Of a stretch of DNA of 39,226 nucleotides, positions 1 through 37,804 are shown in pieces. This stretch comes from Oligoflexales bacterium (GTDB taxonomy: Bacteria; Bdellovibrionota_B; Oligoflexia; Oligoflexales; Bog-1112). A program made the position numbers and the translations under genes. The stretch is from the NCBI GenBank assembly GCA_017985985.1, contig JAGNWK010000019.1, positions 1 through 39,226 on the forward strand. The letters are read 5' to 3'. Position 1 is the first letter of the stretch, and every line of letters begins with the position of its first letter. A model generated the notes under the pieces. The model had not been told where the DNA came from, searched no databases, and saw nothing but the letters and a program-made list of their open reading frames with translations.

Positions 1-1
1 C

Positions 2-805
2 ATCATAGGTACTTACCAAAGCACACTGACTAATTTTGGATATCTTCCAGAAGCCTGGGCAGACAACTGCAAAACAGAAAGACTCTTGGGAGTGTCCCTC
101 ACAGGTCAAATGGATTGCATAGCTGTAAGCCAGAGAGAAGTTCTAAACGAACTTAAGGAAGAGGCTCTCGTCACAAACAAAGAATACGCTAAAAAATTTG
201 AAATCAATCCCTCTACATGCATCACTTGTGTAAAACCATCTGGAAATGTAAGCCAGATGGTAGGCTGTTCAAGCGGCCTGCATGGGGCCTTTGCTGATTA
301 TTATATCCGGAGAATACGGATTGCCTATAACGATCCTTTGCTAAAGCTTGCAAAAGATCAAGATGTTCCGATGTTTCCCGAAGTTGGGCAATCTGTTGAA
401 AATGCAACGACTTGGGTTTTAGAATTTCCACAAAAGGCCCCAGAAACTTCCATATTACAAAGCAAGATGAGCGCTATAGAGCAGCTCGAGTATTGGAAAA
501 AAGTAAAACTTAGCTTTACCGAGCACAATCCAAGCGTCACCATTTATGTCAAAGATAATGAATGGGTCCGCGTAGCTGATTGGGTTTACCGAAATTGGGA
601 AATCATTGGAGGGCTTAGTTTTCTTCCTGCCTCGGATCATGTTTACCAGCTAGCACCCTATGAAAAAATATCTAAAGAGGAGTACGAGAAGCGCTTAAGT
701 GCATTATCGAACTTAGACCTCTCGCTGCTGTCGGAATATGAAATGTTTGACAACACGCAGCCGCAGGCAGAGTTGGCCTGCACTAGTGGTACTTGTGAAC
801 TATAA
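2..805 (+). CDS. nrdJ: Ribonucleotide reductase, class II (adenosylcobalamin-dependent), C-terminal portion; 5'-partial, continues upstream of the window
   Basis: The frame is open from position 2 (IIGTYQSTLTNFGYLPEAWADNCKTERLLGVSL...) with no upstream stop. 'TCVKPSGNVSQ' and the C-terminal Cys pairs (..CTSGTCEL) resemble the NrdJ C-terminus. The first in-frame Met, at 86, is not the true start. Confidence 0.7.
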   Translation: MIGTYQSTLTNFGYLPEAWADNCKTERLLGVSLTGQMDCIAVSQREVLNELKEEALVTNKEYAKKFEINPSTCITCVKPSGNVSQMVGCSSGLHGAFADYYIRRIRIAYNDPLLKLAKDQDVPMFPEVGQSVENATTWVLEFPQKAPETSILQSKMSAIEQLEYWKKVKLSFTEHNPSVTIYVKDNEWVRVADWVYRNWEIIGGLSFLPASDHVYQLAPYEKISKEEYEKRLSALSNLDLSLLSEYEMFDNTQPQAELACTSGTCEL

Positions 806-909
806 ATATTTCCAAATATGATAATTTTGTACCAATAAGGGTCACAAGGCAAACATGATATCATCATCTAGTCGGGGATCGGCATCTCAAAAAGATAGAG
901 GTTTATTCT

Positions 910-2235
910 ATGTTAGTTTTTGGGCTTGAATTTATCATATTGTTTGCTGCCATCTTGCTTGGGATTAGAAAAGGAGGGATGGCGTTAGGACTCATTGGGG
1001 GGCTTGGACTTGCTGTTTTTACATTTTGTTTTCGCGAAGTTCCATCCACACCTCCTATTGACGTCATGCTGATCATCCTTGCTGTAGTGAGTGCTTCAGC
1101 AACTTTACAAGTTGCTGGAGGTCTCGAATTTTTGGTACAAATCACAGAGCGAATCTTACGGACGCACCCTCAATATGTAACGATCCTAGCTCCTCTTTCA
1201 ACTTTTTTTCTTACCGTTTGCATGGGGACCGGTCATGCTGTTTATACGCTACTTCCAGTCATTGCAGATGTAGCTCTTAGGGCGGGGGTAAGACCGGAAA
1301 GACCTATGGCTATTTCAAGTGTTGCAGCACAAATGGGGATCACAGCTAGCCCGGTTGCAGCAGCTGTCACCACTTTTCTTGCTTTTGCAGCAAAGTCAGG
1401 TTTCGTCTTAACTCCATTTGACATCCTCAAGGTTACTTTCCCTGCGGGACTCATAGGAGTACTAGCAGCAGCGATCTGGAGTTTTCATCGAGGAAAAGAT
1501 CTCGATAAAGACGAAGAATTTCAAGAAAAACTAAAAGACCCTGAATTTAAAGAGTCTCTGCAGACAAGTGTGACAACCCTGGACCAAAACATTTCTTTTT
1601 CTGCAAAAATTTCGTTGTTGTTATTTTTCATAGGTGTTTTGACCATTATCATGCTTGGCCTATTCCCCCAATTCCTACCTCTAGCGAATGGCAAGACCCT
1701 CCCCATGACAACGGTTGTCCAAATCGTTATGTTAACTATCGGATCCTTTATCCTTTTTGCAAGTGGAGTCAAAGCCAAGGATATTGCGAATTCGAGTATT
1801 TTCAACGCTGGAATGGTTGCTCTCGTTTCCATTTTTGGTATTGCTTGGATGAGTGATACTTTTGTTAATGCTAATAAGGACTTTCTGATAGAAAAAATTG
1901 GTGAGATGGTTAAATTTGCCCCTTGGTCTTTTGGTATTGCTATGTTCTGCGTATCGGCTTTTGTTAAAAGTCAAGCAGCCACTCTTATCATCATGTTGCC
2001 TTTTGGGTTAGCTCTAGGTCTTCCCCTCTCCCTTCTCTTGGGTCTTTTACCTGCTAGTTACGCATACTTCTTTTTTGCTTTTTACCCAAGCGACCTCGCC
2101 GCGATTAACATGGATCGCACGGGCACAACCAAAATAGGAAGCTATCTCCTCAACCATAGCTTTATGGTCCCTGGACTCATCGGTGTAGGGGTGTCGACAA
2201 CAGTCGCTTATTTCATAGCAAAAGCACTTTACTAG
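910..2235 (+). CDS. dcuA: Anaerobic C4-dicarboxylate transporter, DcuA/DcuB family
   Basis: 441 aa polytopic membrane protein. The N-terminus MLVFGLEFIILFAAILLGIRKGGMALGLIGGLGLAV and the internal 'LQVAGGLEFLVQITERILRTHPQYVTILAPL' are collinear with E. coli DcuA. An ATG start is preceded by AGAGG. Confidence 0.8.
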   Translation: MLVFGLEFIILFAAILLGIRKGGMALGLIGGLGLAVFTFCFREVPSTPPIDVMLIILAVVSASATLQVAGGLEFLVQITERILRTHPQYVTILAPLSTFFLTVCMGTGHAVYTLLPVIADVALRAGVRPERPMAISSVAAQMGITASPVAAAVTTFLAFAAKSGFVLTPFDILKVTFPAGLIGVLAAAIWSFHRGKDLDKDEEFQEKLKDPEFKESLQTSVTTLDQNISFSAKISLLLFFIGVLTIIMLGLFPQFLPLANGKTLPMTTVVQIVMLTIGSFILFASGVKAKDIANSSIFNAGMVALVSIFGIAWMSDTFVNANKDFLIEKIGEMVKFAPWSFGIAMFCVSAFVKSQAATLIIMLPFGLALGLPLSLLLGLLPASYAYFFFAFYPSDLAAINMDRTGTTKIGSYLLNHSFMVPGLIGVGVSTTVAYFIAKALY

Positions 2236-2488
2236 ACGGAGCACCATCCGTATCTCATCCGATAACGAGGGGCTGGAAAAAGCTGAGCCAGACGATGAGG
2301 AACATACAGCAATGACGCTTGTCTTTAGCCTCCAAAACATGTATCTAAAGCACCGAGAAAAAGGTAACCAACCATCTCAAAGTCATATAGCAAGCACTTA
2401 AGGACTGAGCAACGTAGCGACGGATATAGGCAGCTAGAGGATTTGTGAGATAGTCCCTCATATAAAAAAAGACACTTAGGAGAAGAGT

Positions 2489-2938
2489 ATGGCAAAGAAA
2501 CTTTTACTTTTTATTATATTAGCAATGACTTCATCACTTTCCTATGCTGGTATTTTGTTACCAACTTTTTATGCAGACCCTACGACACGTATACGCTATG
2601 GAGAGCAACACTACCACTCGGATGATCCATCAGGAATTTTATGGCAACTGCGCTATTGGTCGCACAACCAACTGCACCCTTCAGCGCTTTCCCAAGCCTT
2701 AAATGATATTCTTTCTAATAGGGGTAAATTTTCTGGCACTGTGAACTTAGGGGCTCTTAAATATAATCTCTATCACTCATCCGCTGGCAAAGACGAAAAA
2801 ACAGCTACACTTTTCTTTATCCTGGAGCAGGAATTTACTCGTATCATTGGCATAGCTAGGCATGTCCAAGTTCAACCTCGTCAACCGCCAAAATATGAAA
2901 TAGTAGCTTGGGATGATCGATATCCCGTATATTATTAG
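2489..2938 (+). CDS. Hypothetical secreted protein
   Basis: 149 aa ORF with an N-terminal signal peptide (MAKKLLLFIILAMTSSLSYA). No recognisable domain. Confidence 0.5.
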   Translation: MAKKLLLFIILAMTSSLSYAGILLPTFYADPTTRIRYGEQHYHSDDPSGILWQLRYWSHNQLHPSALSQALNDILSNRGKFSGTVNLGALKYNLYHSSAGKDEKTATLFFILEQEFTRIIGIARHVQVQPRQPPKYEIVAWDDRYPVYY

Positions 2939-2973
2939 CCAATACCAGCTGTATAGAAATTACGCAAGCTAAC

Positions 2974-3351
2974 CTACTTTTCCTTTGGAGCTGTACTTAT
3001 CCTACAGATCGAGTAAATCGGACAAGATCCCACCAGGCCTGTCACAACAAAGATAGAACCTAAAAGAAACCAGTAGTTGCTTGGTCCCCAAAACGCCATA
3101 CTGGAAAGAAAAAGTCCCCCTAAAACTCTCACAACTCGATCTACTATGTGCACATTCTTTTTCATAAAAAACTCCCGAAATATCAATTTATTAAAATCTG
3201 AAAAAAATAGAAATTTCTTCCTGCTGGGAGGTTCACAAATACATCGATCTTCTTTTTTAATCTGGCTCATAACTTGATCGATGTGAGCGCCACAACCTTG
3301 CCAAGTTGTCTTGCCACAAGATCTGCACTTCACAGGACGGCACATACTCAC
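2974..3351 (-). CDS. DUF2892 (YgaP-like) small membrane protein, possibly with an N-terminal Cys-rich extension; start uncertain
   Basis: The C-terminal 55 aa (VDRVVRVLGGLFLSS..W..LLGSIFVVTGLVGSCPIYSICRI) fit the DUF2892 pattern (DR..R...G......W....G....TG..G.CP.Y). The N-terminal 50 aa has CxxC...C..C..CxC. The real start may be the internal Met (MKKNVHIV). Confidence 0.4.
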   Translation of the reverse strand: MSMCRPVKCRSCGKTTWQGCGAHIDQVMSQIKKEDRCICEPPSRKKFLFFSDFNKLIFREFFMKKNVHIVDRVVRVLGGLFLSSMAFWGPSNYWFLLGSIFVVTGLVGSCPIYSICRISTAPKEK

Positions 3352-3405
3352 TCCAATTATACTAAGAAACTATCCCACAAGTCATCTAGCACTCTTTTCG
3401 TCAGT

Positions 3406-4386
3406 CTAGAACTTTATATTCCAAATAAGTTGCACCTTGCCCTTATGAAATGCTTTGTCAAACTGCTCAGATTTAAAGTCTTCTGTGATAAGGCTACTTG
3501 AAATAAAGGCTATGCCTGCAGTCTGACCTTTTGTATAGGCCCAGTCTAATTCTGGTTCGATAGATAAATTAGCTCGCCATGTGTCGTCAAGTTTTGCTGC
3601 CGTATCAAACTTACTAAATTTAGTCATTTGAAGAATCATTGGAAATTCAAATTCTAACTCGCTAGGAAGTTTGAAATTCAATTTAGAGACAAGCTGAGTT
3701 TCAAATGTCTCTCTTGCAAACTTTTTATCGTTAAAAGTGTAACCACTATTTCGAGCAAAAAAGACTGCTGGCACAACTGAAAAAACACCCTTGACACTTT
3801 CTGAGAACATGGTTTCGAGAGTCAGATAGGTCCTTAAAGTCATAATCATACCTTGCTCATAGCGAGAGTAACTCGATTCCGTAGCTGAGTTTGTTGGTAG
3901 GTAAGAACGAACTTGAAGAGAAAGCTTCGACTTCTCATCTGTACTTTTCCAAAGTTCACTAAATTTTGCTTTTACATATCCATCATAAAGCCTTACATAA
4001 GGGACTTTAAATACACTTTTTTTCGTTTTGGGTTGATACAAGTTTGTAGAAAAAGTCTGGACATAAGAAACTTTAGTCCTGTTATAGAGTTGCAGGCCAT
4101 ATTCAACGCTGTTTTCCGTATGGGCTTCGCCAACGTCATAGCTAAATGTAGGGCGAGACTCCAAAGAGATAAATTTTTCTATTGTCCTTGTATTTAACTT
4201 GTCATCAGGACTAGAGTCATTATCGATATGGCGAGCCGTGCTCTTTTGCCGGTGTATTCTTGTAGCATCTGCATAAGCAAGATAAGGTGAGGTCATGAAA
4301 AAGGTCAAAAAACATGACAACAAAGAGACTATATCTAATTTTTTTTTCCAAACTAACGACAGCATAGATGACCCTTTGTATGGCAT
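3406..4386 (-). CDS. Hypothetical secreted or outer-membrane protein (possible beta-barrel)
   Basis: 326 aa with a signal peptide (MLSLVWKKKLDIVSLLSCFLTFF..AYA). It has alternating hydrophobic stretches and ends in ..VQLIWNIKF, the C-terminal Phe signature of OM beta-barrels. An alternative start is at 4365. Confidence 0.5.
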   Translation of the reverse strand: MPYKGSSMLSLVWKKKLDIVSLLSCFLTFFMTSPYLAYADATRIHRQKSTARHIDNDSSPDDKLNTRTIEKFISLESRPTFSYDVGEAHTENSVEYGLQLYNRTKVSYVQTFSTNLYQPKTKKSVFKVPYVRLYDGYVKAKFSELWKSTDEKSKLSLQVRSYLPTNSATESSYSRYEQGMIMTLRTYLTLETMFSESVKGVFSVVPAVFFARNSGYTFNDKKFARETFETQLVSKLNFKLPSELEFEFPMILQMTKFSKFDTAAKLDDTWRANLSIEPELDWAYTKGQTAGIAFISSSLITEDFKSEQFDKAFHKGKVQLIWNIKF

Positions 4387-4523
4387 GTTTTAAAAGGAGC
4401 TTATTATATGATAGCAAACTAAGGAGACTATTGGACAGTTTATAAGAGCCCGCGGGTTTTTTAAGATGAATTGACTGTCCTATTTTTAGGGATTTTTTTT
4501 GCCCTGATGTTAGGCGATCAGGG

Positions 4524-4678
4524 CAATGTCATTTGGTTAAGGTGGAATTCCTCACCTGCCTGTCTTGTTTTAACTCGATACCTCTCGACTTCGCTCGAGG
4601 TGACAGCGTTTTAACTGGTAGGGACGACGTCACCCCGAGCGAAGTCGAGGGGTATCGGAGCTTAACCGAATGACATTG
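4524..4678. mobile_element. MITE-like nested palindromic element (family 2), flanked by an 8-bp direct repeat GCGATCAG
   Basis: The outer inverted repeat is caatgtcattYggttaag. The inner inverted repeat is ctcgataccYctcgacttcgctcgRggtgac with a ~35 bp spacer. The element is immediately flanked by ggcgatcagg on both sides, which looks like a target-site duplication. Confidence 0.6.
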
Positions 4679-5323
4679 GCGATCAGTGGAGCTCATACGT
4701 AACCATCAATTACAATCTATAAATAGAGAAATAAAATGCGTGGAAAAAGTATTTTAAGTCTTTTTCTCCTATTTATTAGCCCTAACGCCTTCTCCAATAA
4801 AACAGTACAAAGACATCCGTCTTTAGCCCACGCTCCTTCCGCAACTCCGTAGATTGCACCAAGAAAGAGCTCAGAACGAATTGTTTTTATCCGTGACAGA
4901 AGAGATCGCTCTATTAGTTTACCACATCTACTCGCTGCGCTAGTTCAAAATGGCCAAATCATCTCTACAAGCGAACTATCGACTGTATATTTACTAAGTC
5001 AAGCACAGGTCCGACTCTATTTGCCACATTTTAGGTCTGAATTAGCCAGTCGTTTCTGAGATTGCCACAACTGCCATTCTTACCTCACCCAACCTTTACT
5101 ACTTTACCTGATTTGCCCCCAAAATAGCACCCTTGTGGGATTGGAGCTTAATTCCATTTCTATAAAACTTTATGCGAGAGACAAAATTATGCGGGAGACA
5201 AAACAATGACCATATCTTATGTCAAGGCAAGATTTCTAAAGCAACAGAAGCACTTTTTAAGATCTGTTGCTGTTAAAATCGACAATGGCATGAACTATTT
5301 AGCTAAGCGATCATTACCAATGA

Positions 5324-6961
5324 TTAGAGCTCATCACTGTGATCTACGCGTGAAGGAGTGGCATAGTCCTCTGGATTGATTTCTTGTTTCTTTCGTAAGA
5401 AGTTCTCCACAATATTTGTGTCAATGAAATCTGTTCTCACAAAACTTGAGAAATTAGAGGCGTCTACAGAGTTATCTTTGCCAGACATGAGATAACAAGA
5501 CGAAACAACTTGGATATCCTCTTCTCTCATGATTTTGAAATCGCTGACCAGAGCCCTTGTCCCTTTGCTGTCCGTTACGGTCAACATCATAATAGATCCA
5601 TTTAGAAGACGAAATTTTATCCCAAAAAAATGAACGTCGTCTTCTGAGTTTTGCCGTAGAAGGGTTTCTATAAATTTTACAAAATCAGATGTGCTCAACT
5701 CAACTTTACACATTCGATTGTGAAACGGCATCAATTTCTCTAGTGTCGAATATGTAAGATCCCCTGGCACGAGGTCGATACGCAAGGCCCCGGTTTTTAC
5801 AAAGCAGACTTTGCCAGACGCTTCCTCGCAAAAAGCCTGACTCACGAGGCGACCAAGATTCGTCTCACCACGAGGAGCTGAAGAGCGTCCCCAAAAAAAT
5901 CCTTTACTTCTAGTAATCCTTTTCGTGAAACGATCCTTAATTCTTTCGTTATATTGTTCAAATAAGTGAAGCAACTCTGGATCTTCCGGAACGATCTTTT
6001 TTTGCTGACCAGAGTGAGAGACCTGCAACAGTTGGACTTTTGTATCCAGGTCTGAGTCTTCTTCTGGATTAATGGGGATAAGTTTATAATCCAGACTGAT
6101 AAATTTTTTATTCTTAAAGATGAGATCAACACGACCAAGAACTTTTCCATGCTCCCAAGCTTGTAAAATTGCAGTGCTTGCGACAATGTAAGCTCGGTCA
6201 AGACGTGTATGGGTATGACCACCAATGATCACATCAATTTGACCGTGCATGCTTTTCGCAAGCTCAATATCTCCAAAACCATGAAGACCGTCTTCGTTAT
6301 TAAGATAGAACCCTAAATGAGTAAGGGCTATGATAAAATCAACTTGCTTTCGCAACTGGGGCACCAATTCCTCAGCAGTCAAGAAGACATCACGAAATTC
6401 AATATTTGGGATCAAGGTCATATTTCCAGTTTGTGTCGTTGTAAAACCTATGACTCCAATATGAAGGCCACCAAACCTTTTAATGATATAAGGCTTAACT
6501 AATAGTTTTTTTTCCTTCTTGAGATATGTATTAGCCGATAGGAATGGAAATTTGGCTAAAGCTTGTTGCTTAAAAATTTTATCCAAATCTCCATCGAACT
6601 CATGATTACCCAAGGTCATCGCATCATAACCTATTATATTCATGGATATAATATCTGGCTCTGCTCGAAAAAAACCAGACTCGGGTGCGCCTGTATTGAT
6701 ATCACCTGCGGAAAGAATAAGTAAATGGCCTCCCTCACGAGCGACCTCCTTACGAATTTCATCAACTAAACTTTTTTGAGCTGCAAAACCACAAGCACGA
6801 CTTCTTTGGTCTTTCTGATAATGACCATGAGTATCGTTGGTATGCAATATTGTAATACGCACGACACTATCAACTGCTGTTTGTATCGGATCAGCAGCAT
6901 AAATTACGACATCATGAAAACAGGTCATAAAGATAATGATTTTTAAAATACGACACAGCAT
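5324..6961 (-). CDS. Bifunctional metallophosphatase/5'-nucleotidase (UshA-like), secreted
   Basis: The metallophosphoesterase motifs are present (ILHTNDTHGH; GNHEFD; GGHTHT). A signal peptide follows an ATG at 6961; the ORF-track start at 6970 is GTG. Confidence 0.75.
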   Translation of the reverse strand: MLCRILKIIIFMTCFHDVVIYAADPIQTAVDSVVRITILHTNDTHGHYQKDQRSRACGFAAQKSLVDEIRKEVAREGGHLLILSAGDINTGAPESGFFRAEPDIISMNIIGYDAMTLGNHEFDGDLDKIFKQQALAKFPFLSANTYLKKEKKLLVKPYIIKRFGGLHIGVIGFTTTQTGNMTLIPNIEFRDVFLTAEELVPQLRKQVDFIIALTHLGFYLNNEDGLHGFGDIELAKSMHGQIDVIIGGHTHTRLDRAYIVASTAILQAWEHGKVLGRVDLIFKNKKFISLDYKLIPINPEEDSDLDTKVQLLQVSHSGQQKKIVPEDPELLHLFEQYNERIKDRFTKRITRSKGFFWGRSSAPRGETNLGRLVSQAFCEEASGKVCFVKTGALRIDLVPGDLTYSTLEKLMPFHNRMCKVELSTSDFVKFIETLLRQNSEDDVHFFGIKFRLLNGSIMMLTVTDSKGTRALVSDFKIMREEDIQVVSSCYLMSGKDNSVDASNFSSFVRTDFIDTNIVENFLRKKQEINPEDYATPSRVDHSDEL

Positions 6962-7193
6962 ATCAACCACCTATCAAACAGAAGATTGAAACAGCTACAA
7001 TCAAAGTAGTTGCAGTCTATCATCGATAGGTTCTATGGTCCAGGCAGTTCGCCCAAGATCTGAGCAAACTCAAAGAAAAAAAGTCCTGGGAAAATTTTAA
7101 GGAACCATCAGCGCTCAATTACTTTAATGTGTATTTAGCTAAAGATTGTTTTAAAATCTGTGGGAAGCAGGTCCCGGTAAACGATAAGAAGAT

Positions 7194-8018
7194 GTGAGCT
7201 ACGCTCACTGGAGGAGGCTGAGAGGACAAAGAACTCGGATAGACCTGCAGAAGATCATATGCTTTTTTTTCAAGAGACCTGCTATACAAACAAGCAAAAT
7301 ACAGAGTTGGGAAGACATCAAAGGTTTTGATGACGTTTGGACTTACAACCTGCAACCGAAAAATTTCTTCCCAATGCGGACGGTAGCTATCCGTACAGAC
7401 GATGGAGGGCTCATCGTCTACAATCCCGTAAGAAATCTGGGGCAAGACATTCATTCTGAGCTAGCGAAGATTGGTGATGTCCGCTGGGTGATTTCACCCA
7501 ACCATTACCACACTCTTGCTGCCGATGGGTGGCAACAGCTCTACCCCAAAGCCAAATTTTTTGCACACCTACAGGCTCATCCCCGTCTGAAAAAACAGAC
7601 CAAAGTTTCTTGGCTGGATATCGTTGATTTGATTCCCATTTTACCAAAAGGAGTGACTCTAAAAAAGCCAAGAGGCTTAAAAACAGGTGAAATCGGACTT
7701 TGTCTGGAGCGTCCAGATATAAAGATGTGGATATTTGGTGATCTATTCTTCAACATTCCTAAACTTCCTCCCGGACTTTTTGGCTTCATTCTCCGACTGG
7801 GGGGCACAGCTCCTGGACTCCATTCTTCCAGAGTCTTTCGTCTGATTGCTGTCTCTGATCGGCAGGACTTCCTCCAATGGCTGCAAGAAAACCTAGCCCA
7901 AGATCGCCCACAGTGCTTCGTTCCCACTCACGGTGAAATTCTCTTTCACCCAGCTCTGTCTCAACGACTTTATGACGTTGCTTCCGCTAATCTAAAAAGA
8001 AAGAAAAATATAAGCTAG
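7194..8018 (+). CDS. Hypothetical protein, possibly MBL-fold/DUF4336-like; start uncertain (alternative ATG at 7374)
   Basis: 274 aa ORF. The motifs ..VRWVISPNHYHTLAADGW.. and ..CFVPTHGEI.. are reminiscent of DUF4336 MBL-fold proteins. The overlapping minus-strand ORF 7119..7454 is judged spurious. Confidence 0.4.
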   Translation: MSYAHWRRLRGQRTRIDLQKIICFFFKRPAIQTSKIQSWEDIKGFDDVWTYNLQPKNFFPMRTVAIRTDDGGLIVYNPVRNLGQDIHSELAKIGDVRWVISPNHYHTLAADGWQQLYPKAKFFAHLQAHPRLKKQTKVSWLDIVDLIPILPKGVTLKKPRGLKTGEIGLCLERPDIKMWIFGDLFFNIPKLPPGLFGFILRLGGTAPGLHSSRVFRLIAVSDRQDFLQWLQENLAQDRPQCFVPTHGEILFHPALSQRLYDVASANLKRKKNIS

Positions 8019-8039
8019 CTTTCTACGATCAAATCCATT

Positions 8040-8381
8040 CTATTTTCTATGTTTCTTTTCTAGGAGTGAATTTATTTTTTTCGAAAAATCATCGAGACTA
8101 AATGGCTTTGCCAGAATTAAATCATTATAAATTTTCGAATCAAAAATTTGCCCTGTTATTCTCATAACGGGTTTACCAGAATCTTGAAGAAATCTTTCTA
8201 AGCGATCAGAGTCTGGCATCTGAACATCAGAAATAATAAAATCACACTCTTTCACATACATCTCTGCCTCTGACAATCTTTTTGCTTTAAAAACTATCAG
8301 ACTTAATCCTAAAGCCTCAACCTGATCTGAGATCAAATCTAAAATATCAGTTTCATCATCAATAATTAGCAATTTTTCCAC
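8040..8381 (-). CDS. Single-domain response regulator (CheY-like receiver)
   Basis: 113 aa (MEKLLIIDDETDILDLISDQVEALGL...DFIISDVQMPDSD) with an acidic pocket and a phospho-acceptor Asp context. GTG start. No output domain. Confidence 0.6.
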   Translation of the reverse strand: MEKLLIIDDETDILDLISDQVEALGLSLIVFKAKRLSEAEMYVKECDFIISDVQMPDSDRLERFLQDSGKPVMRITGQIFDSKIYNDLILAKPFSLDDFSKKINSLLEKKHRK

Positions 8382-8410
8382 ATTTTATCCTATTAAAAAT
8401 CTATTTCTGT

Positions 8411-8468
8411 TTTATAATTCTCGGCCGAAATCCTCAAAGGGGAGGATTTCGGCCGAGAATTATAAAAC
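8411..8468. terminator. Perfect 28-bp-arm inverted repeat (hairpin) between hemH and the receiver gene
   Basis: tgttttataattctcggccgaaatcctc / loop aaagg / gaggatttcggccgagaattataaaaca. The palindrome is perfect but no clear U-tract follows on either strand. It may be a terminator or attenuator for hemH, or a protein-binding site. Confidence 0.4.
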
Positions 8469-8473
8469 AGGCC

Positions 8474-9466
8474 TTACCAAGCAGCCTCTTGAATTTTCTG
8501 AGAACAGAACTCAACCCAAGAATCACTCATATTCAAACAGGGGATGAGGTGCAAATCTTCGCCTCCCAATTCAATCCAGTCTTCTCTGCCACGCATACCT
8601 ATTTCTTCGAGGGTTTCGAGACAGTCTGTAACAAACGACGGACAGGCGACAGCCAATCTTCGGATAGACTTTTGTTTTGCTAGGTCTTTTAATACAAGAT
8701 CCGTATAAGGCTTAATCCATGGCGTCACTCCTAGTCGAGACTGGAAGGACACGGTGTAATCTCGACCTGTCAGCCCTAAAGATTCCGCCACTTTCTTGGC
8801 TGTGATAAAGCACTGCATCTGATAGCAATAAGCCTCTCCCCCAAAGCCACACGTACGAAGAAGTTGGCGTTCGGGAATACCATGAAAGCTAAACAAGAGA
8901 TGGTCCCAAGGTCTGGCCAGCTTATTTTTCTCAAAAAGAATACCTTCTTTTAAAGCCTCTATAAAACCGGGCTCTTGATAGAAAGGTGGTACCACCTGTA
9001 CAGAGGGCATATCCATGCGCTTAGACAACTCTTTGAAAACATAGGCCATCGAAGAAGCAGTCGAAGCGGAAGCGTATTGTGGGTAGAGAGGAAAGAGAAT
9101 CAATCGCGAACAGCCCCGCAACTTTTCAAGAGCAGAAGACACACTGGGCTGCCCATATCTCATAGCAAGTTCAACCTGAAAGCCAGAATTTAGTTTTTTA
9201 CCCAAACTTTCCTGGAATTTTTTGCTATAAGCAATGAGTGGGGAGCCCTCTGACTCGAGCCAAATTTTTTTATACGCCTCTGCAGACTTTTTTGGTCGAA
9301 AAGGCAAAATGAAGAGATTCAATAGCAATTGTCGAGAAATCCAAGGGATATCTACAACTCGCGGATCGGAGAGAAACTCTCTCAAGTAAGTTCGGACATC
9401 TCGGACTTCGGTACTGCGGGGGGAGCCAATGTTGATGAGCAGGACCCCTATCTTTTTATGGTTCAC
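8474..9466 (-). CDS. hemH: Ferrochelatase
   Basis: 330 aa with an N-terminus MNHKKIGVLLINIGSPRSTEVRDVRTYLREFLSDPRVVDIPW typical of HemH. GTG start. Confidence 0.85.
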   Translation of the reverse strand: MNHKKIGVLLINIGSPRSTEVRDVRTYLREFLSDPRVVDIPWISRQLLLNLFILPFRPKKSAEAYKKIWLESEGSPLIAYSKKFQESLGKKLNSGFQVELAMRYGQPSVSSALEKLRGCSRLILFPLYPQYASASTASSMAYVFKELSKRMDMPSVQVVPPFYQEPGFIEALKEGILFEKNKLARPWDHLLFSFHGIPERQLLRTCGFGGEAYCYQMQCFITAKKVAESLGLTGRDYTVSFQSRLGVTPWIKPYTDLVLKDLAKQKSIRRLAVACPSFVTDCLETLEEIGMRGREDWIELGGEDLHLIPCLNMSDSWVEFCSQKIQEAAW

Positions 9467-9499
9467 TGAACAATCCCTCTTGCTGAGAATGGAACATAT

Positions 9500-10852
9500 A
9501 TGTGCACTTACTTTTTAAAACTGAAGATGGCAAAACTACAATTTGGTTTAAGCCTTCTCCTCGCCCTCCTATCTTTTTCAGGTTTTGCTAGAGAGAGGAC
9601 GAAGCTTCCGATTCGAAAGATTCTATCCACGACGGTTGATTCTTCGATCAACCCAGCGACTCTAAACTACCTTTCTACAAGTTTTGAACATGCACAAAAA
9701 CTTGGTTATGACCTCATCCTGATCAACTTGAATACCCCAGGAGGTCTCGTCTCTACGACCAAAGAGATCCTTGCCCTTATTGGTAACAGTAAAATTCCCA
9801 CCGCCATTTGGATTCATCCTGAAGGAGGCTCTGCAACAAGCGCAGGCGCCATTATCGCCAGCAGTGCTCACATATTAGCCATGTCTCCTGGTACAAATAT
9901 CGGAGCTGCTACCCCTGTACAACTAGGCAAAGATCTGGAAGACAAAGACCTGAGAAACAAAGCGATCAATGATCTAGTTTCCCTTGTGCAAAGTCTGTCC
10001 CAGTCCAGAGGCAGAAATCAAGAAGCCTTCGGCAATATGATAAAGGAAGCAGCCTCCTACCAATCTCAGAATGCTGTTGAACTCAAACTCGTCGATTTCA
10101 TCGCCAACACTCAGAATGAATTTGTTGAAAAACTTCAAGGTCGAGAGATATCGATCCAAGGTGAAACTTTTACACTTGAATGCCTGAACCCACAAGTTGA
10201 TGAACAAGCGATGGATCTCGGACAGAAACTGCTCAACATATTAGCAAGCCCAGACCTTACCTATATTCTGTTCATGCTGGGAGCAGCCCTTATCTACTTT
10301 GAGTTTCAAACGCCAGGAGGGTTTATAGCGGGTGGAGTGGGTAGCATCCTTCTCATCCTTTCAGGTATAGGGTTCCAAGTTCTTCCGCTCAACTTCGGTT
10401 CCTTAGCCCTCATCATCTTGGCATTTATCTTATTTATCCTAGAACTGTATATTACAAGTTATGGCGGACTTTCTCTCGTAGCCGTCTTATCTCTTTCTGT
10501 TGGTTCACTCTTTCTGTTCAGAACGGATAACGCTTATCTCGACATCAGCCTGCCACTTATTTTTGCAACTATCTCCTGCATAACTCTGGCAGCTCTTTCC
10601 CTAACCTTTTTAGTTTTTCGGGACTTGAAAAAAGACTCGAATAAAAAAAATTATTACTCTTTAGCAGGAAAGACAGCTACAATCCTTGCGACTCTACCCG
10701 AACTAGGGTCGAGCTCAGAGCCAGGCATCCACTGCTTTCAAGTCAAAGTTGCAGGAGAAATCTGGACAGCAAAGTCCCAGACAGCGCTCCAAATTGGTGA
10801 GACCTGTACGGTGACAGATGAAGATCGAATAAATATGTTCCTGTGGCTGTAG
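9500..10852 (+). CDS. NfeD-family membrane-bound serine protease (ClpP-like N-domain, TM region, C-terminal OB-fold)
   Basis: Signal peptide; ..ILINLNTPGGLVSTTKEI..SATSAGAIIASSAHILAMSPGTNIGAATP..; central multi-TM region; C-terminal beta domain. The gene lies immediately upstream of an SPFH gene, the classic NfeD-stomatin operon. Confidence 0.75.
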   Translation: MCTYFLKLKMAKLQFGLSLLLALLSFSGFARERTKLPIRKILSTTVDSSINPATLNYLSTSFEHAQKLGYDLILINLNTPGGLVSTTKEILALIGNSKIPTAIWIHPEGGSATSAGAIIASSAHILAMSPGTNIGAATPVQLGKDLEDKDLRNKAINDLVSLVQSLSQSRGRNQEAFGNMIKEAASYQSQNAVELKLVDFIANTQNEFVEKLQGREISIQGETFTLECLNPQVDEQAMDLGQKLLNILASPDLTYILFMLGAALIYFEFQTPGGFIAGGVGSILLILSGIGFQVLPLNFGSLALIILAFILFILELYITSYGGLSLVAVLSLSVGSLFLFRTDNAYLDISLPLIFATISCITLAALSLTFLVFRDLKKDSNKKNYYSLAGKTATILATLPELGSSSEPGIHCFQVKVAGEIWTAKSQTALQIGETCTVTDEDRINMFLWL

Positions 10853-10861: not shown

Positions 10862-10919
10862 CACCCCCACCATCAAACAAGGAGGGGGCGAAGGAAACCA
10901 GCTGCGCAGTTTGTCCCCC
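10862..10919. repeat. REP-like palindromic element (family 4; core GGAAACCAGCTGCGCAGTTTGTCCCC) in the NfeD-stomatin intergenic spacer
   Basis: The core shares the palindrome ..aaccagctgcgcagttt.. with copies at 27097, 30393, 31931, 33677 and 36201/36259. Confidence 0.55.
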
Positions 10920-10923
10920 TGAA

Positions 10924-11679
10924 ATGAATCTAAATGAGGTTTTTATGATGTTCTTCATGTTTTTTGTATCTCTGGCTGTGGTCGTTCTTTTCAACACAGT
11001 CAAAATACTAAACGAATACGAGCGAGCTGTTATTTTTCGGCTCGGTCGTTACACCGGGGTCCGAGGTCCTGGTCTTATCATACTCGTTCCTGGACTCGAG
11101 AAGATGAGAAGGGTAGATCTTCGAACAGTCACCCTAGACATCCCCTCTCAAGACATTATCACTCGCGATAACGTAACTCTAAAGGTCAATGGGGTGGTTT
11201 ACTTCAGAGTGGATAGACCCGAAAAATCTGTCATCTCTGTTGAGGACTATCTCAATGCAACTGGTCAGATCGCCCAGACAACCCTCCGTTCTGTTATCGG
11301 ACAATTCGAGCTTGATGAAATTCTATCTCAACGCGATAAGATTAACGCAAAGCTCCAACTTATCTTGGACGAACACACAGACCCTTGGGGGATCAAGGTC
11401 AGCGTTGTGGAAGTAAAAGCGATCGATCTTCCTATTGAAATGCAACGAGCCATGGCTAAACAAGCTGAAGCTGAAAGAAATAAGCGGGCAAAAGTGATCT
11501 CTGCAGAGGGCGAGCTGAATGCTGCCTATAAGCTTGCTGAGGCGGCCCAAATCTTAGGGACTCAAAAAAATGCTATTGTTCTTCGCTACCTAGACACCAT
11601 GAAAGAAATATCGACGGGAGAAGGGAAAACGACGACATTCTTCCCGCTACCCCTTGATTTCATCTCAAAATTAGGCTGA
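10924..11679 (+). CDS. SPFH/band-7 protein, stomatin-like (paraslipin)
   Basis: ..[76 protein letters not shown].. is a canonical stomatin/QmcA sequence. The better start is probably the ATG at 10945, which has a GAGG 5 nt upstream. Confidence 0.85.
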
Positions 11680-11811
11680 GAGGGCTGTCCAGGTCACACA
11701 TAAGCCTATGACTTACCTAGATAAATTAGATTAACTTTCTTTTCCTAAATATAATCCCCATAAGTTCCGAAGTTCTCCCTTAGAGATGTGTATAGAAAAA
11801 GAGAGAATTTC

Positions 11812-13362
11812 ATGCTTATGAGAAGGCTCAAGTTCATAGTCGCGCATATAGGCCGGTTTGTTCTGGTTCCGGCTGTTTTATCCTCTTTTTTGCTTTCCTG
11901 TAATGGAAAAAATTCGAGCGAGATCATCGATTCTATAGATGCAGCTCAAGTTCAACCGGATCAAAGCTCAAATAGCGATGACGCCTTTGCCAGCACAGAC
12001 CTTGCCAACGTCCAAGTTGTTAGCAAAGGATCTAGTATAAAAAACCTCCTGACTCTCCCTGACTGTGTTCCTGCCCAATATGGAAAAGTGATGTTTAGAA
12101 GTCTAGACTCTAAATTTCTCTATTGTCATAACCCCAAGCAGTGGGATGAAATCGACCTCAGAGGCAACGGAGGAGTTGCAGGGGCTGCAGGAACTCAAGG
12201 TAAGGCTGGTATTGACGGTATCCGGGGAGAAGACGGTCCAACCGGTCCTCAGGGCGATCAGGGAGCCAGGGGAGAGACAGGTGTCCCTGGTGTACAAGGG
12301 ATAAAAGGCACTCAAGGTCCTCAGGGAGAAAGGGGACCTGCAGGGGCTGTAGGGGCTGCTGGAGCAACAGGGCCTAAGGGAGATCAAGGTGTTCAGGGTC
12401 TTGAAGGACTTAAGGGTCCCGACGGTCCCCAAGGACCAGTTGGAGCAGCTGGAAACCTGGCTGGAGATAAGGGAGATGCAGGGAGTGCAGGCCCAGAGGG
12501 AGATCAGGGTATACCAGGCGTTGCCGGTGACAAAGGGGCAACCGGACCCAAGGGAGCAACCAGTACTGTAATTGGAGCTGTAGGGGATACAGGTCCGCAA
12601 GGTACACAAGGTTTGCCTGGAACTAGCGGTACAGAACGTGGCGACGTAGGGGCAATGGGTATCAAAGGCATTCAAGGCATTCAAGGCATTGCAGGCATTC
12701 AAGGCATTGCAGGCATTCAAGGCATTCAGGGCCTCAAAGGCTTTCAAGGGCCTCAAGGTCTGCAAGGGGTGAAAGGAGCAGAGGGTCCTACTGGTTCCCA
12801 AGGTGCAGTTGGAGACAAGGGATTGACAGGAGCTCAGGGAGGTAAGGGCCCTCAAGGGAGCCAGGGTGTAGTTGGTGACCAAGGTCCCCAAGGGGCAAAA
12901 GGAGCTACGGGTCTGTCAGGAAAATCTCTTCTTGTCAAAGACAGTTCGTCTTCTACCTTGTTGGGTGCATTCGTTTCCTATGGCAACCCATTTGACTCAG
13001 CAGATAGAGAGACCATCCTTGTTTACAATGATGCAGCTGATCTTGTTTTTCCCGTCAGTTCAAGTGGAAAACTTATCGATGTACCGAGCTCAACAAGCTT
13101 CATGTACTGGGAGAAAGACGGGTGCACTGGAGCTCCTTCCATTCAACTCCCTATGCCACTTGTCTTCGAGATAGCTTTCACAAGAGGCTCTGAAACTTAT
13201 AGGGTCGTTTCTCTCAATCGACCTTCTGTTCGGTCTTATACAAATGCATCCAACAGCTGTATCACTGTACCTAGCCAGCAGATCACCAACACCTATCTTG
13301 TCGAATCCACAAGTGACATCCCTAGCACGTACGCAGCACCACTCACCTACATCGTTGAATAG
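11812..13362 (+). CDS. Collagen-like triple-helix repeat lipoprotein with a non-collagenous C-terminal domain
   Basis: Signal peptide with lipobox (LLSC). There are about 250 aa of uninterrupted Gly-X-Y (GNGGVAGAAGTQGKAGIDGIRGEDGPTGPQGDQG...). A perfect 9-bp tandem repeat (ggcattcaa/ggcattgca) encodes GIQGIQGIAGIQGIAGIQGIQG at 12667-12732. A ~150 aa C-terminal globular part follows. The ORF-track start at 11788 is GTG; ATG 11812 is preferred. Confidence 0.75.
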   Translation: MLMRRLKFIVAHIGRFVLVPAVLSSFLLSCNGKNSSEIIDSIDAAQVQPDQSSNSDDAFASTDLANVQVVSKGSSIKNLLTLPDCVPAQYGKVMFRSLDSKFLYCHNPKQWDEIDLRGNGGVAGAAGTQGKAGIDGIRGEDGPTGPQGDQGARGETGVPGVQGIKGTQGPQGERGPAGAVGAAGATGPKGDQGVQGLEGLKGPDGPQGPVGAAGNLAGDKGDAGSAGPEGDQGIPGVAGDKGATGPKGATSTVIGAVGDTGPQGTQGLPGTSGTERGDVGAMGIKGIQGIQGIAGIQGIAGIQGIQGLKGFQGPQGLQGVKGAEGPTGSQGAVGDKGLTGAQGGKGPQGSQGVVGDQGPQGAKGATGLSGKSLLVKDSSSSTLLGAFVSYGNPFDSADRETILVYNDAADLVFPVSSSGKLIDVPSSTSFMYWEKDGCTGAPSIQLPMPLVFEIAFTRGSETYRVVSLNRPSVRSYTNASNSCITVPSQQITNTYLVESTSDIPSTYAAPLTYIVE

Positions 13363-13397: not shown

Positions 13398-14612
13398 CTA
13401 AGGTTGATCGTAAACAAATGGAGAGGAGAAATAATGATTAGTCCTTGCGTAGGGATGCAGTGGGGGGGGAGGGGGAGGCAAAATCGCTGTATTCCCATAA
13501 AGAGACCCTGCAGTCGCTGCCGTTGATACAGGAGGAAGCTCAGCCTCGACATTTCGCTTGATAGCAAAAACTAAAATACCCATAGGCTTTGTTGCAGATA
13601 GTCGAATATAAAATCGTTCTTGGTCATGAGAAAGGTAACTTGTCCATGTTGAAGATGCCGCTTCGACAAACAGCTCCATGTAAGGATACAGTGCTGGCAC
13701 CATATCCCGATATTGGGCAAGGCTAGCTCTTGTGAGCTGCAAAGCCTGGTAGGTGGATAGATCACCTTTAACTGTGCTCATGGCATAGCGATGAGCATGA
13801 ATGGAGGTCATAGCAACCGCATCGTGAATTCTATGCCCAAAAAAATTGTACTTATCTAGATTAAGTAAATGAGCGTCGATGCGAAATGGGGATGTGGGCA
13901 GAAGAGGTTCATCGAGTACGAATCCCCCTACGCTTTTACGTTTTATACACCCTAGAAGAAGCCTGGGATTTACCAAAATCCTGACGTTTGTGGCTCTGTT
14001 AAAAATTCCCATTAAAAGCCCATCTAGAGCAGGCTTCTGATCTCGAGGCACACTGTCATAAAGCCAGGTCTCAGCGACACTCTGAGCTATGATTTTGTCA
14101 CCGGTCGACTTCAATGGACAAGACACCCTTGTTAGAAGCTGATAGACAGCTACACTAGTTCCTACAAGAATGGCACAGGCCGAGATAAAACTGACGATAA
14201 TGCCAAGATAAGTCGTAAACGAGGCTAGGTTTGTCTCCTGGTTAGTGGATATATTGGCATTAGAAGAGGGACTAGCTGCTGCCGTGACGTTTACTGATAC
14301 ACCGATGGGTGATGGTGATGGTGATGGTGATGGTGATGGTGATGGTGATGGTGATGGTGATGGTGATGGTGATGGTGATGGTGATGGTGATGGTGATGGT
14401 AAAACTTCTTCAGGTGTTTGTGCATGAGCTTCACCAAAATTTGAGAACCAGTGCAAGGACAACTGTGTAGCTACCTGCAAGGAAGAGAGTTCGCGAGAAA
14501 ACTGCGGAGTTGGTTTCTCCCAAGAAAGAAACGCTAAGCAGATGAGAAGAAAGAATAAAAAAATATTTCCTTTTGACATTTTTTTCGATGGACAGTTTTT
14601 TGCCTGCAACAT
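13398..14612 (-). CDS. Hypothetical membrane protein with an (SP)16 linker
   Basis: Signal peptide (MSKGNIFLFFLLICLAFLSW from ATG 14579), then (SP)16 encoded by (tcacca)n, a TM helix and a ~260 aa C-terminal domain of unknown function. A poly-Pro tail is encoded over a G8 tract at 13462-13469. Confidence 0.5.
   Translation of the reverse strand: MLQAKNCPSKKMSKGNIFLFFLLICLAFLSWEKPTPQFSRELSSLQVATQLSLHWFSNFGEAHAQTPEEVLPSPSPSPSPSPSPSPSPSPSPSPSPSPSPSPIGVSVNVTAAASPSSNANISTNQETNLASFTTYLGIIVSFISACAILVGTSVAVYQLLTRVSCPLKSTGDKIIAQSVAETWLYDSVPRDQKPALDGLLMGIFNRATNVRILVNPRLLLGCIKRKSVGGFVLDEPLLPTSPFRIDAHLLNLDKYNFFGHRIHDAVAMTSIHAHRYAMSTVKGDLSTYQALQLTRASLAQYRDMVPALYPYMELFVEAASSTWTSYLSHDQERFYIRLSATKPMGILVFAIKRNVEAELPPVSTAATAGSLYGNTAILPPPPPPLHPYARTNHYFSSPFVYDQP
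14308..14400. repeat. Hexanucleotide microsatellite (GGTGAT)~15.5, coding for the (SP)n linker of the 13398..14612 CDS
   Basis: Perfect tandem hexamer visible in the sequence. It preserves the reading frame. Confidence 0.9.
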
Positions 14613-16127: not shown

Positions 16128-16245
16128 TCTAAGTATTGCGATTTCGTTATTGCGAGGAGCCGTAGGCGACAAAGCAATCTTCTTGCCTTTACCTGGAGAT
16201 TGCTTCGCTCATGACGAGCTTCTACGATGAATACTTAGACAGCTT
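16128..16245. mobile_element. MITE-like palindromic element (family 3)
   Basis: Outer inverted repeat ccaaSctgtctaagtatt; inner palindrome tcgttattgcgaggagccgtaggcgacaaagcaatct...agattgcttcgctcatgacga. A second, chimeric copy is at 32779-32896. Confidence 0.55.
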
Positions 16246-17064: not shown

Positions 17065-17436
17065 TTATCGATTTCTTTGTGAGTTGAAAGATCGGGGCCC
17101 TCCGCCGCCAGATCCGCTTCCACCGCGGTTAGGACGGAATCCGCCCCCACGATTTCCACCACCACCACCACCAGCACCGCCACGGTCTGGTTTGTCGTTT
17201 GCTTCGTTGACTTTCACAGTTCTGCCATCAATAGCATGTCCATCCATTTCGGAGATGGCATTAAGGGCAGCGTCATCGTCACTAAAAGTCACAAAACCAA
17301 AGCCCCTGGAACGTCCAGTCTCGCGGTCTGTGATCACTTTGGCTTCTTCAATTTCACCAAATTTCTCAAATGAAGCCCTAAGCATCTCGTCATCTGTGCC
17401 CCAGCTAAGACCGCCAACAAAAAGTTTCTTTCCCAT
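17065..17436 (-). CDS. Glycine-rich RNA-binding protein (single RRM domain)
   Basis: RNP2 KLFVGGLSW and RNP1 RGFGFVTF are present. The C-terminal tail is GGAGGGGGGNRGGGFRPNRGGSGSGGGG. The overlapping plus-strand ORF 16982..17455 is an antisense low-complexity artefact. Confidence 0.85.
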   Translation of the reverse strand: MGKKLFVGGLSWGTDDEMLRASFEKFGEIEEAKVITDRETGRSRGFGFVTFSDDDAALNAISEMDGHAIDGRTVKVNEANDKPDRGGAGGGGGGNRGGGFRPNRGGSGSGGGGPRSFNSQRNR

Positions 17437-17957
17437 TTCTCAAAAAGCTCCGTAATCTGGCCCCCTGCAGGGTAATAACCCATAGCTCATCTTTCTCATT
17501 ACCCCATGTGGTATGGGGCATCGAGTAACTCGCCTAAATCAGGAAGCACTTAGTAAACTGCGTGATTCTCAGTTTAAAAACAAAAAAAAGCAGACGGGCG
17601 AGCAAAACAGAGCCCCACACACCCATCGCAACTGTTTGTTTCAAAGCCTATGAATCACATTAAACTCTCAACCTAGTATACATAGCATTGACCGGGGGTC
17701 GAAATCATCTGTTTTTTACATTTATCTCGAGACTTTTAAAAAACACAAAAAAAACAATCGCTTGTAAACTTTTTTTTGCTTCTGCCCATCTCACAACGGA
17801 AGTCGGCAAAGTTTTCTGGAAAGAAATTCACCAAAAAGAGTAGGGCCGCAGGGTGACGCTGTCTCCAAATTTGATAGCCCTGCAATTTTAGAGTTCATTC
17901 GATCCCATATTCTCGATATTCTCCAACCTGAGTAGCACAGCACTCTATGAGTCACCC

Positions 17958-18000
17958 ATGTCATTCGGTTAAAAATCGAGACTTCGCTCGTAGTGACGGG
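17958..18000. repeat. Partial family-2 palindromic element (outer inverted repeat plus one inner arm), flanked by ~27-bp imperfect direct repeats
   Basis: atgtcattcggttaaaaatcgagacttcgctcgtagtgac matches the 4524-4678 element. gagtagcacagcactctatgagtcaccc (17931-57) and gagtggcatagcactctatccgtccccc (18010-36) are direct repeats. Confidence 0.45.
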
Positions 18001-18091
18001 ACTCCAGATGAGTGGCATAGCACTCTATCCGTCCCCCATCCCGATGACGTCCAAATGGAAGACACGACTAACCATAGAAAGCCAGACTGAA

Positions 18092-24970: not shown

Positions 24971-25106
24971 GATTTTCTTATCTCCTAAAATAAAGCTGGA
25001 TAAGCCAGCCATAATGCAGAAACAGCCTGCATGTTATACTATAAGTCGCTATGAGGCAAAGTAAAGGGGCTAGCTTAAAATTCTTACAGGCAGGGCCTTC
25101 ATCTTA

Positions 25107-25227
25107 GGAACCATCCCACAAGTCGTATAGCAAGGCATTGGGGAGCAATCAGTGCAGTTTACTGGATGGTAAATGAGCAGCGCAGCGACGAAAATAACGC
25201 AGCTACACGACTTGTGGGATGGTTCCT
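25107..25227. mobile_element. MITE-like element family 1, copy A (~121 bp, 21-bp terminal inverted repeats)
   Basis: Terminal inverted repeats aggaaccatcccacaagtcgt ... acgacttgtgggatggttcct with an ~80 bp core. Its terminal ..cctag supplies the TAG stop of the adjacent CDS 25226..25726. Confidence 0.7.
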
Positions 25228-27096: not shown

Positions 27097-27122
27097 TGGG
27101 GAACCAGCTACGCAGTATCCCC
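27097..27122. repeat. REP-like palindromic element (family 4)
   Basis: ggggaaccagctacgcagtatcccc lies immediately after the stop of 26794..27081. Confidence 0.5.
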
Positions 27123-36187: not shown

Positions 36188-36200
36188 CCGCCCCCACCTA

Positions 36201-36311: not shown

Positions 36312-36343
36312 TAACCGCAAGAGCCGCAGAAGAAAGAAAAGAA

Positions 36344-37729: not shown

Positions 37730-37804
37730 TAGGTGTGAGCGCCATCCCTTTCTCACCGCCAATATCACTGAGGAATGGGCCGCCCCTATTTGTTTGTTCA
37801 TTTA

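Follow-up and report, generated by a model that had tools for sequence, protein, structure and literature searches.

A head-to-head dimer of REP-type hairpins wrapped in outer repeats, probably a small mobile element, in an Oligoflexales genome

Repeats and the mechanisms that spread them

The bacterial interspersed mosaic elements (BIMEs) of enterobacteria are mosaics of repetitive extragenic palindromes (REPs) in alternating orientation, interspersed with short conserved modules. REP doublets forming hairpins (REPINs) carry GTAG heads, are tied to a REP-flanked gene for a REP-associated tyrosine transposase (RAYT, a Y1 transposase), make no target duplication and occur mainly in Proteobacteria; Bertels and Rainey are said to have recognized in 2011 that two inverted REPs with a short spacer form one long hairpin, which is the replicating unit. 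Here we compare these and two further systems with a palindromic unit at positions 4524-4678 of a stretch of 39,226 nucleotides from an Oligoflexales bacterium (contig JAGNWK010000019.1 of GenBank assembly GCA_017985985.1), the whole of which is called the window below and supplies all coordinates. The unit is probably a small non-autonomous mobile element, and with guarded confidence we favor an account in which its core, a head-to-head dimer of a pan-bacterial REP-type hairpin, is packaged with outer repeats and was probably inserted once by a trans-acting transposase making a staggered cut.

Two published systems stand closest. The CGTC-tagged REP superfamily of Di Nocera, De Gregorio & Rocco (2013, BMC Genomics 14:522; PMC3733652) includes the Neisseria dRS3 and the Rickettsia RPE-4/RPE-6 repeats and is characterized by an unpaired CGTC or TGTC head, a stem starting from A-T and a short tail. 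Its members are dispersed and mostly intergenic in five phyla, mostly form dimers, head to head, whose spacer of 20-100 bp is conserved, and have no known associated transposase. In the published families the stems are perfect over 8-9 bp, with loops of 4-5 nt and CCA as the tail, and intragenic copies encode VIPAKAGI, VIPWLDHGI or VIAGLDPAIH. The second system is QMITE2 of Coxiella burnetii (Wachter et al. 2018, BMC Genomics 19:247; PMC5896051), a unit of 150-190 bp containing a REP palindrome of GTAG type, with terminal inverted repeats (TIRs) of ~17-25 nt and variable direct repeats of 7-11 nt, located between genes or in 3' untranslated regions (UTRs). Around 60-80 copies with variable direct repeats have been mapped, QMITE2 is an insertion hotspot for IS1111, its short versions consist of the REP alone, lacking TIRs and direct repeats, and no cognate transposase was identified (PMC5896051). 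Sequence strings looked for in 8 million papers gave no relevant match, and neither did a literature search on the GCGAAGC mini-hairpin.

Anatomy of the element

A preliminary description of this DNA had called the unit a nested palindromic miniature inverted-repeat transposable element (MITE) with a target-site duplication. The nested palindrome is borne out, since an 18-nt outer inverted repeat with one mismatch (CAATGTCATTTGGTTAAG / CTTAACCGAATGACATTG; Table 1) encloses an inner inverted repeat of 34 nt and 88% at 4576-4609 / 4624-4657, and the unit folds far beyond shuffled sequence, to -50.7 kcal/mol as single-stranded DNA (z = -9.5) and -87.2 kcal/mol as minus-strand RNA (z = -10.3). The unit measures 155-157 bp, the larger figure if it is counted as 4522-4678, and its outer-repeat ends read AATGTCATTYGGTTAAG. 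It has no coding capacity, the longest open reading frames (ORFs) being at most 55 aa and generated by the palindrome itself. A direct repeat flanks it, with a 9-nt form, GGCGATCAG, at 4513-4521 and 4678-4686 and an 8-nt form, GCGATCAG, at the positions in Table 1. The octamer had been described as directly flanking the element on both sides; on the right it abuts the outer repeat, but on the left two nucleotides (GG) separate them. Small size, lack of coding capacity, TIRs and a direct repeat of 8-9 nt support the MITE designation in part; only one copy has the duplicate.

Module sharing between copies was read from a short-word BLAST of the element region against the window. Two modules only are common to the copies, an outer module of 17-18 nt, AATGTCATTCGGTTAAG, whose two copies make the outer inverted repeat, and a module of 29-30 nt, TCGATACCYCTCGACTTCGCTCGRGGTGAC; the segment from the left outer module to the left hairpin and the 24-nt center are each unique in the window. 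In the right arm the hairpin module lies 3 nt from the outer module, and both right-arm copies at 37.8-38.0 kb have the same spacing. The inner inverted repeat had been taken for a private feature of one MITE family, and here the preliminary description missed the more general point. Since both arms are REP-type hairpins belonging to a class seen in about 13 phyla, the element is more aptly viewed as two REPs joined head to head and enclosed by outer repeats specific to this lineage.

In architecture QMITE2 is the nearest precedent, being alike in size, TIRs, flanking direct repeats, intergenic position and an internal REP. It differs in that its REP is of GTAG type, whereas here a (C/T)GTC-type REP is present as an inverted dimer, one visible copy has direct repeats and no IS insertion is seen. 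A REPIN likewise consists of two inverted REPs that form a long hairpin across a short spacer, although the heads of our element are (C/T)GTC and not GTAG, and a Y1 transposase domain was neither found in scans of the window nor recurrent in the 112 loci listed from other genomes (see below). As in a BIME, REPs form a mosaic with other short modules, but the REP sequence class is different.

Table 1. The element, its flanks and related features, in window coordinates
Feature	Position	Strand	Remarks
Flank hairpin TTGCCCTGAT / ATCAGGGCAA	4499-4526		10-bp perfect stem, 8-nt loop
Left direct repeat GCGATCAG, putative target-site duplication	4514-4521		9 nt with G4513
Left outer inverted repeat CAATGTCATTTGGTTAAG, lineage-specific module	4524-4541	+
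Left-arm-only segment, 33 nt	4542-4574		Public contigs L113/L114 end within it, at 4564
Left-arm REP-type hairpin	4575-4606	-	Head TGTC, stem ACCTC/GAGGT, apex GAGCGAAGTCGA, tail ATCG; 40.4 bits, E 3.6e-10
Spacer between hairpin heads (head-to-head), 24 nt	4605-4628		~70% like the spacer of the 37.8-kb copy, by manual alignment
Right-arm REP-type hairpin	4627-4658	+	Head CGTC, stem ACCCC/GGGGT, apex GAGCGAAGTCGA, tail ATCG; 38.7 bits, E 1.2e-9
Right outer inverted repeat (CAATGTCATTCGGTTAAG on the minus strand)	4661-4678	-	3 nt past the hairpin tail
Right direct repeat GCGATCAG	4679-4686
Half copy	17956-17999	+	Outer module and hairpin with an 8-9-nt deletion; same 3-nt junction; 5' of the proline dehydrogenase ATG at 18008
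Solo outer module, 1 mismatch	32728-32745	+	Abuts another mosaic repeat
Same hairpin class with another stem (ATTGC/GCAAT)	32792-32870		Tail-to-tail dimer, CGTC heads
Second dimer copy	37796-38047		Degenerate left outer repeat, long-loop left arm, right arm twice, no flanking direct repeat

A hairpin class with a conserved apex

The arms follow one layout, in which an unpaired (C/T)GTC head is followed by a 5-bp stem opening with A-T, a 12-nt apex GAGCGAAGTCGA and a short tail. The exact 21-mer core of this hairpin, CTCGACTTCGCTCGRGGTGAC, was sought in one genome per species (596 Gb) and was present at more than 112 loci, against about 0.5 expected by uniform-composition arithmetic. Among the matches listed, these loci span about 13 bacterial phyla, the carriers being Kiritimatiellae and other Verrucomicrobiota, Planctomycetota, Bacteroidota, Ignavibacteria, Calditrichia, Clostridia, Chloroflexota, Myxococcota, Acidobacteriota, Gemmatimonadota, Armatimonadota, Spirochaetota, and Alpha- and Gammaproteobacteria. 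Their flanks are unrelated and similarity ends a few bases beyond the motif; the outer-repeat module of our element was not found in the 112 loci listed from other genomes. The base before the motif covaries with the R within it, agaccC going with ...CGGGG and agaccT with ...CGAGG, a compensatory change within the 5-bp stem ACCYC/GRGGT.

To avoid circularity the same loci were searched with the apex alone (GA[GC]CG.AG[TC][CG]GA), using reversed sequence as the control. This returned 81 further sites against 4 in the reversed sequence, and the flanking bases were complementary at five of five positions in 41 of them and at four of five in 16. The stems varied (ATTTC, ATTCC, ATGTC, ACATC, ATCCC, AGTTC, GTACC and others) while the GTC head and the CT(C/A) tail were conserved, with mostly C or T before the GTC. 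In an alignment of 79 distinct sites the covariation of the named structure exceeded that of all 500 shuffles and of every slid control. Five covarying Watson-Crick pairs, the first of them A-T in 40 of 48 paired cells, are followed by the conserved 12-nt apex with at most two further pairs; within it position 3 covaries with position 10 in 4 of the 79 sequences. Pairing is almost purely Watson-Crick, G-T pairs amounting to ~1.4% of paired cells, and this is the pattern of a DNA palindrome and not of a selected RNA helix.

The near-pure pairing (~1.4% G-U if read as RNA) also counts against a functional RNA, that is, a large intercistronic or 5'-UTR hairpin that stabilizes the mRNA of the upstream 5'-nucleotidase gene, blocks read-through or serves as a source of small RNA (sRNA). 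The setting would suit such a role, as both neighboring genes are on the minus strand, the 5'-nucleotidase stop being 646 nt upstream of the element and the start of the gene for a 319-aa protein 157-313 nt downstream, the RNA fold is very stable, and effects on mRNA as well as the production of sRNAs have been reported for REPs and QMITEs (PMC5896051; PMC12306157). If transcribed, the unit would be predicted to place a hairpin of ~-87 kcal/mol at that distance 5' of the 319-aa gene; a scan found no convincing promoter within the element. However, no Rfam family matches, neither strand has a T-run after the hairpin, the element's own hairpin was not terminator-like in the scan, and copies of the class sit in both orientations to genes. 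By a rough tally of gene contexts, 31 of 45 sites were intergenic, 10 of them between convergent genes, 4 between divergent and 17 between co-directional ones, the last dividing 10 to 7 by strand. We regard a functional RNA as improbable.

A covariance model built from sites of the class and run on the window returned, at E < 0.01, both arms of the element, the hairpins at 37882-37913 and 37979-38010 in the second dimer copy and one at 32839-32870, together with weaker long-loop hairpins; it also picks CGTCATCCTGAGCRAAGCGAAGGATC hairpins in a related species. The window's eight hairpins have the heads CGTC (five), TGTC, AGTC and CGTT (one each), and the tail, CT(C/A) in the other phyla, reads ATCG in the window. 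No recurrent protein family lies near the motif in the 112 loci listed. The core was present in 1 of 2.9 million viral contigs, and a plasmid and phage BLAST with the element and the hairpin consensus as queries gave nothing, or marginal matches with E ~1-9.

The (C/T)GTC head, the A-T first pair, the short unpaired tail and the head-to-head dimers with a spacer are all shared with the CGTC-tagged REPs, as are a dispersed, largely intergenic distribution over several phyla and the lack of any known dedicated transposase. Unlike the published families, the hairpins described here have five Watson-Crick pairs and a 12-nt apex in place of an 8-9-bp stem with a 4-5-nt loop, the tail is ATCG or CT(C/A) and not CCA, and the peptides VIPAKAGI, VIPWLDHGI and VIAGLDPAIH correspond to nothing in the GAGCGAAGTCGA apex. 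Because of these differences in stem, loop, tail and intragenic peptides we treat the class as a variant of the superfamily, set apart by the family descriptions in PMC3733652 and not by the consensus; it may be identical with the family CGTC-2. A further step, which we put forward only tentatively, would be to regard (C/T)GTC-A-NNN-C-GAGCGAAGTCGA-G-N'N'N'-T-CTC as an undescribed pan-bacterial class of DNA palindrome, with a fixed 12-nt non-palindromic apex, head and tail and a covarying 5-bp stem. Its occurrence across about 13 phyla without any gene linked to it, together with its near-absence from viral contigs, would imply that conserved cellular machinery or an unrecognized trans-acting enzyme recognizes it.

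The 3' stem and head (CTCGRGGTGAC) are tandemly iterated with 10-14-nt spacers in unrelated genomes (loci L015, L074, L087, L077, L038 and L016), and a 97-bp duplication in the window (copies from 37853 and 37951) begins at the same point, GGTGAC, as these half-hairpin arrays. This suggests a recurrent break or strand-switch site beside the hairpin head, which would be a footprint of propagation if the class is indeed an undescribed one. Separately, a metagenome-assembled genome (MAG) of Christensenella (L048, 1-414) carries 4.3 tandem copies of a 95-nt unit that is itself a head-to-head pair of unlike hairpins of the class, one of the ACCTC type and one of the ATTTC long-loop type.

Insertion, copies and competing explanations

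The account that we favor begins with a DDE-type transposase, supplied in trans, that would have acted on the outer repeats of an intact copy. Its staggered-cut insertion at the present intergenic site most likely duplicated GCGATCAG, and the other copies would later have decayed or rearranged, giving the half copy, the solo end and the 97-bp tandem duplication. For the duplication, a background was obtained by placing spans of 140-170 nt at every position of the window and counting those flanked, at the same small offsets, by exact direct repeats of 8 nt or more. Of the placements 7.6e-4 qualify, most of them in tandem-repeat genes, and therefore a flanking repeat due to chance is unlikely.

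The family is multi-copy and mosaic within the 39 kb, with one full copy, one rearranged and two partial; the related copies of the preliminary description, partial or tandemly rearranged, were all recovered. Six matches to the outer-repeat motif occur in the window, where 0.09 would be expected. The boundary (A)ATGTCATT at the repeat end is identical in all six, and in four of them the outer module is coupled to a hairpin at the constant 3-nt spacing. The half copy had been placed inside the 5' region of the proline dehydrogenase gene; it is present, but it shares with the maximal ORF no more than the GTG at 17993 and, with the start called in a public contig at ATG 18008, lies just upstream of the coding sequence and not inside it. 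An imperfect 28-nt direct repeat (17930-17957 / 18010-18037, 23/28 by manual count) brackets this half copy, and has CTCCAACCTG in common with mosaic repeats at 16118 and 32767. The solo outer motif is also real, though at its tabulated position and not at 32738-32755.

In the 37.8-kb copy a degenerate left outer module, gttcatttaaac, at 37796-37807 precedes a long-loop left-arm hairpin on the minus strand (37810-37858), and the right-arm hairpin with its outer repeat occurs twice, at 37882-37933 and 37979-38030, because of a tandem duplication of 37853-38047 (2.0 copies, 94% matches). The duplicated right half had thus been recognized correctly, but its unit is 97 bp and not 95 bp. Both dimer copies of the family are head-to-head, with related spacers of 24-25 nt.

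Public contigs of the same organism, from three sequencing runs (L113, L114 and L123), all carry the element, entering it from the left as far as 4564 and from the right as far as 4649. Exactly the hairpin dimer is left unassembled, which fits a hairpin core that is multi-copy in the genome. A metagenome scan for the outer repeat with the hairpin tail gave a single chance match (L119), without the hairpin.

Several observations weigh against a transposase-mediated insertion. GCGATCAG is itself enriched in the window, at 7 occurrences against 0.88 expected. The unit at 4524-4678 is the sole copy in the window with both ends and a flanking duplicate, the 37796-38047 copy having no flanking direct repeat and the rest being fragments. 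The left duplicate is 2 nt off the outer repeat and sits inside the perfect 10-bp flank hairpin, which takes in the duplicate and, in addition, borrows 5 nt of the element, namely the GG and the three nucleotides with which the outer repeat opens. The preliminary description had held that its claim would fall if the octamer belonged to a longer pre-existing palindrome and no other copy had direct repeats, and half of this is what was found, the left GCGATCAG being within a 10-bp hairpin. In the reconstructed empty site, ...CCTGATGTTAGGCGATCAGTGGAGCTCATACG..., that hairpin would be there already, though weaker (CTGAT/ATCAG plus CC/GG), so the element either landed in an existing palindrome or extended one by coincidence. 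The empty site itself was not found by way of homologues of the left flank gene, which has three relatives in 5.8 billion proteins, 100%, 58% and 52% identical, the distant ones not syntenic. As the preliminary description had stated, no transposase was found, nor any integrase domain, among those of the window's ORFs, each 100 aa or longer, that were run against Pfam or NCBIfam. Finally, classical REP and REPIN mobility, by HUH/Y1 enzymes, leaves no target duplication, and so the two halves of our explanation, REP dimer and duplicated target, depend on different mechanisms.

Much of this is what a BIME- or REPIN-like REP cluster would produce, a mosaic of hairpins and accessory modules without transposase insertion, spread by a single-strand mechanism (HUH/Y1-type or other) or by local recombination and slippage, with the flanking GCGATCAG pair a coincidence or a preferred context. 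Both arms are bona fide members of the hairpin class, and head-to-head dimers with conserved spacers are typical of CGTC REPs, which have no known transposase (PMC3733652). The window is also rich in recombining modules, such as the solo module at 32728, the half copy between 28-nt repeats and the 97-bp duplication, and the enrichment of GCGATCAG, its left copy within the flank hairpin and the lack of direct repeats at any other copy would all be accommodated. Yet an exact repeat of 8-9 nt stands at both ends against a background of ~8e-4, the outer 18-nt repeats have no part in the cluster model, and QMITE2 is a precedent for REP-containing units with TIRs and direct repeats (PMC5896051). We consider a plain cluster a possible but less probable origin than insertion by a trans-acting transposase.

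The outer repeats also led us to consider an integron attC-like recombination site, since their GTTAAG / CTTAAC resemble the core GTTRRRY and inverse core RYYYAAC and the imperfect palindrome is of attC-like size. The order 5'-GTTAAG...CTTAAC-3' is, however, reversed relative to attC (5'-RYYYAAC...GTTRRRY-3'), and the window has no integrase and no cassette array; attC was rejected on this reversed orientation and contrary gene content. An intrinsic terminator was likewise rejected, as the hairpin has no T-run and the scan gave no terminator-like site for the element's own hairpin. The flank hairpin at 4499-4526 did score as terminator-like on the plus strand, where no plus-strand gene lies upstream. 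The likelihood of either identity is very slight.

Other candidates were set aside: hammerhead and other small ribozymes (no catalytic cores, no Rfam match), a CRISPR-like array (wrong period and repeat structure) and a tRNA- or rRNA-derived motif (no resemblance by inspection). Rfam gave no match at the gathering score anywhere in the window; both copies and the L048 array, when scanned by E-value, gave nothing, or spurious long-hairpin (plant miRNA) matches. A generic scan of the window for a stem-loop followed by TGAC was uninformative.

Genomic setting and meaning

Mosaic intergenic repeats are abundant in the window, which holds at least three other short repeat families. A second MITE-like family consists of 125-bp palindromes at 25105-25229 and 28268-28392 with 22-bp TIRs, TAGGAACCATCCCACAAGTCGT, and has fragments at 2423-2460, 3364-3399 and 32878-32915; its ends read TA...TA, which may be a TA duplication, and its interior contains GCRATCAG. 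The ATTGC-type tail-to-tail dimer at 32792 (Table 1) is repeated in a sister copy (16144-16215) and once more where contig L113 ends (7560-7622), making at least three loci in this organism, each dimer preceded by the module CTCCAACCTGTCTARGTATT. A third family, centered on GGGAACCAGCTGCGCAG, lies at 30396-30499, 36198-36312, 10892-10925, 33676-33699 and 27098-27121; the 36198-36312 copy is a 57-bp tandem duplication, and the copy at 30423-30454 includes a degenerate member of the hairpin class. Public short-read contigs from this organism break off at 4564, 4649, 16118, 22104, 32842 and 36243, all on described repeats save for the uninspected 22104, and so the repeat families fragment assemblies of this genome.

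The glycyl-tRNA synthetase of the window is 66-69% identical to proteins from MAGs assigned to Oligoflexales, Oligoflexus, Bdellovibrionota and 'Deltaproteobacteria'. G+C is 40-42% in positions 1-10000, the region of the element, versus 46-50% beyond 12 kb. Eukaryote-like or repetitive proteins are encoded at 11788-13362, 13398-14612, 17065-17436, 27288-28253 and 28399-30384, a set made up of a collagen triple-helix repeat protein, a gene with a (GGTGAT)n tract, an RRM_1 protein, an OTU-like protease and a leucine-rich repeat/internalin-like protein, and this set is suggestive of a host-associated lifestyle. The ORF at 22077-23624 matches both UshA-like (seleno)protein and multihaem cytochrome c models and stands beside a second 5'-nucleotidase-type gene, an unusual pairing.

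As a repeat of one MAG the element is ordinary genome furniture, which may perturb the expression of neighboring genes and which breaks assemblies, and a REP- or MITE-type repeat is in itself already known. The part that merits follow-up is the conserved-apex hairpin class, a building block whose loop, head and tail are kept across about 13 phyla while its stem covaries. It provides a sharply defined, searchable REP variant, together with a lineage-specific packaging variant that has terminal repeats and a putative target duplication. For the CGTC-type REPs, a superfamily without a known mobilizing enzyme, this gives a handle on how they spread and on which protein reads the conserved apex GAGCGAAGTCGA.

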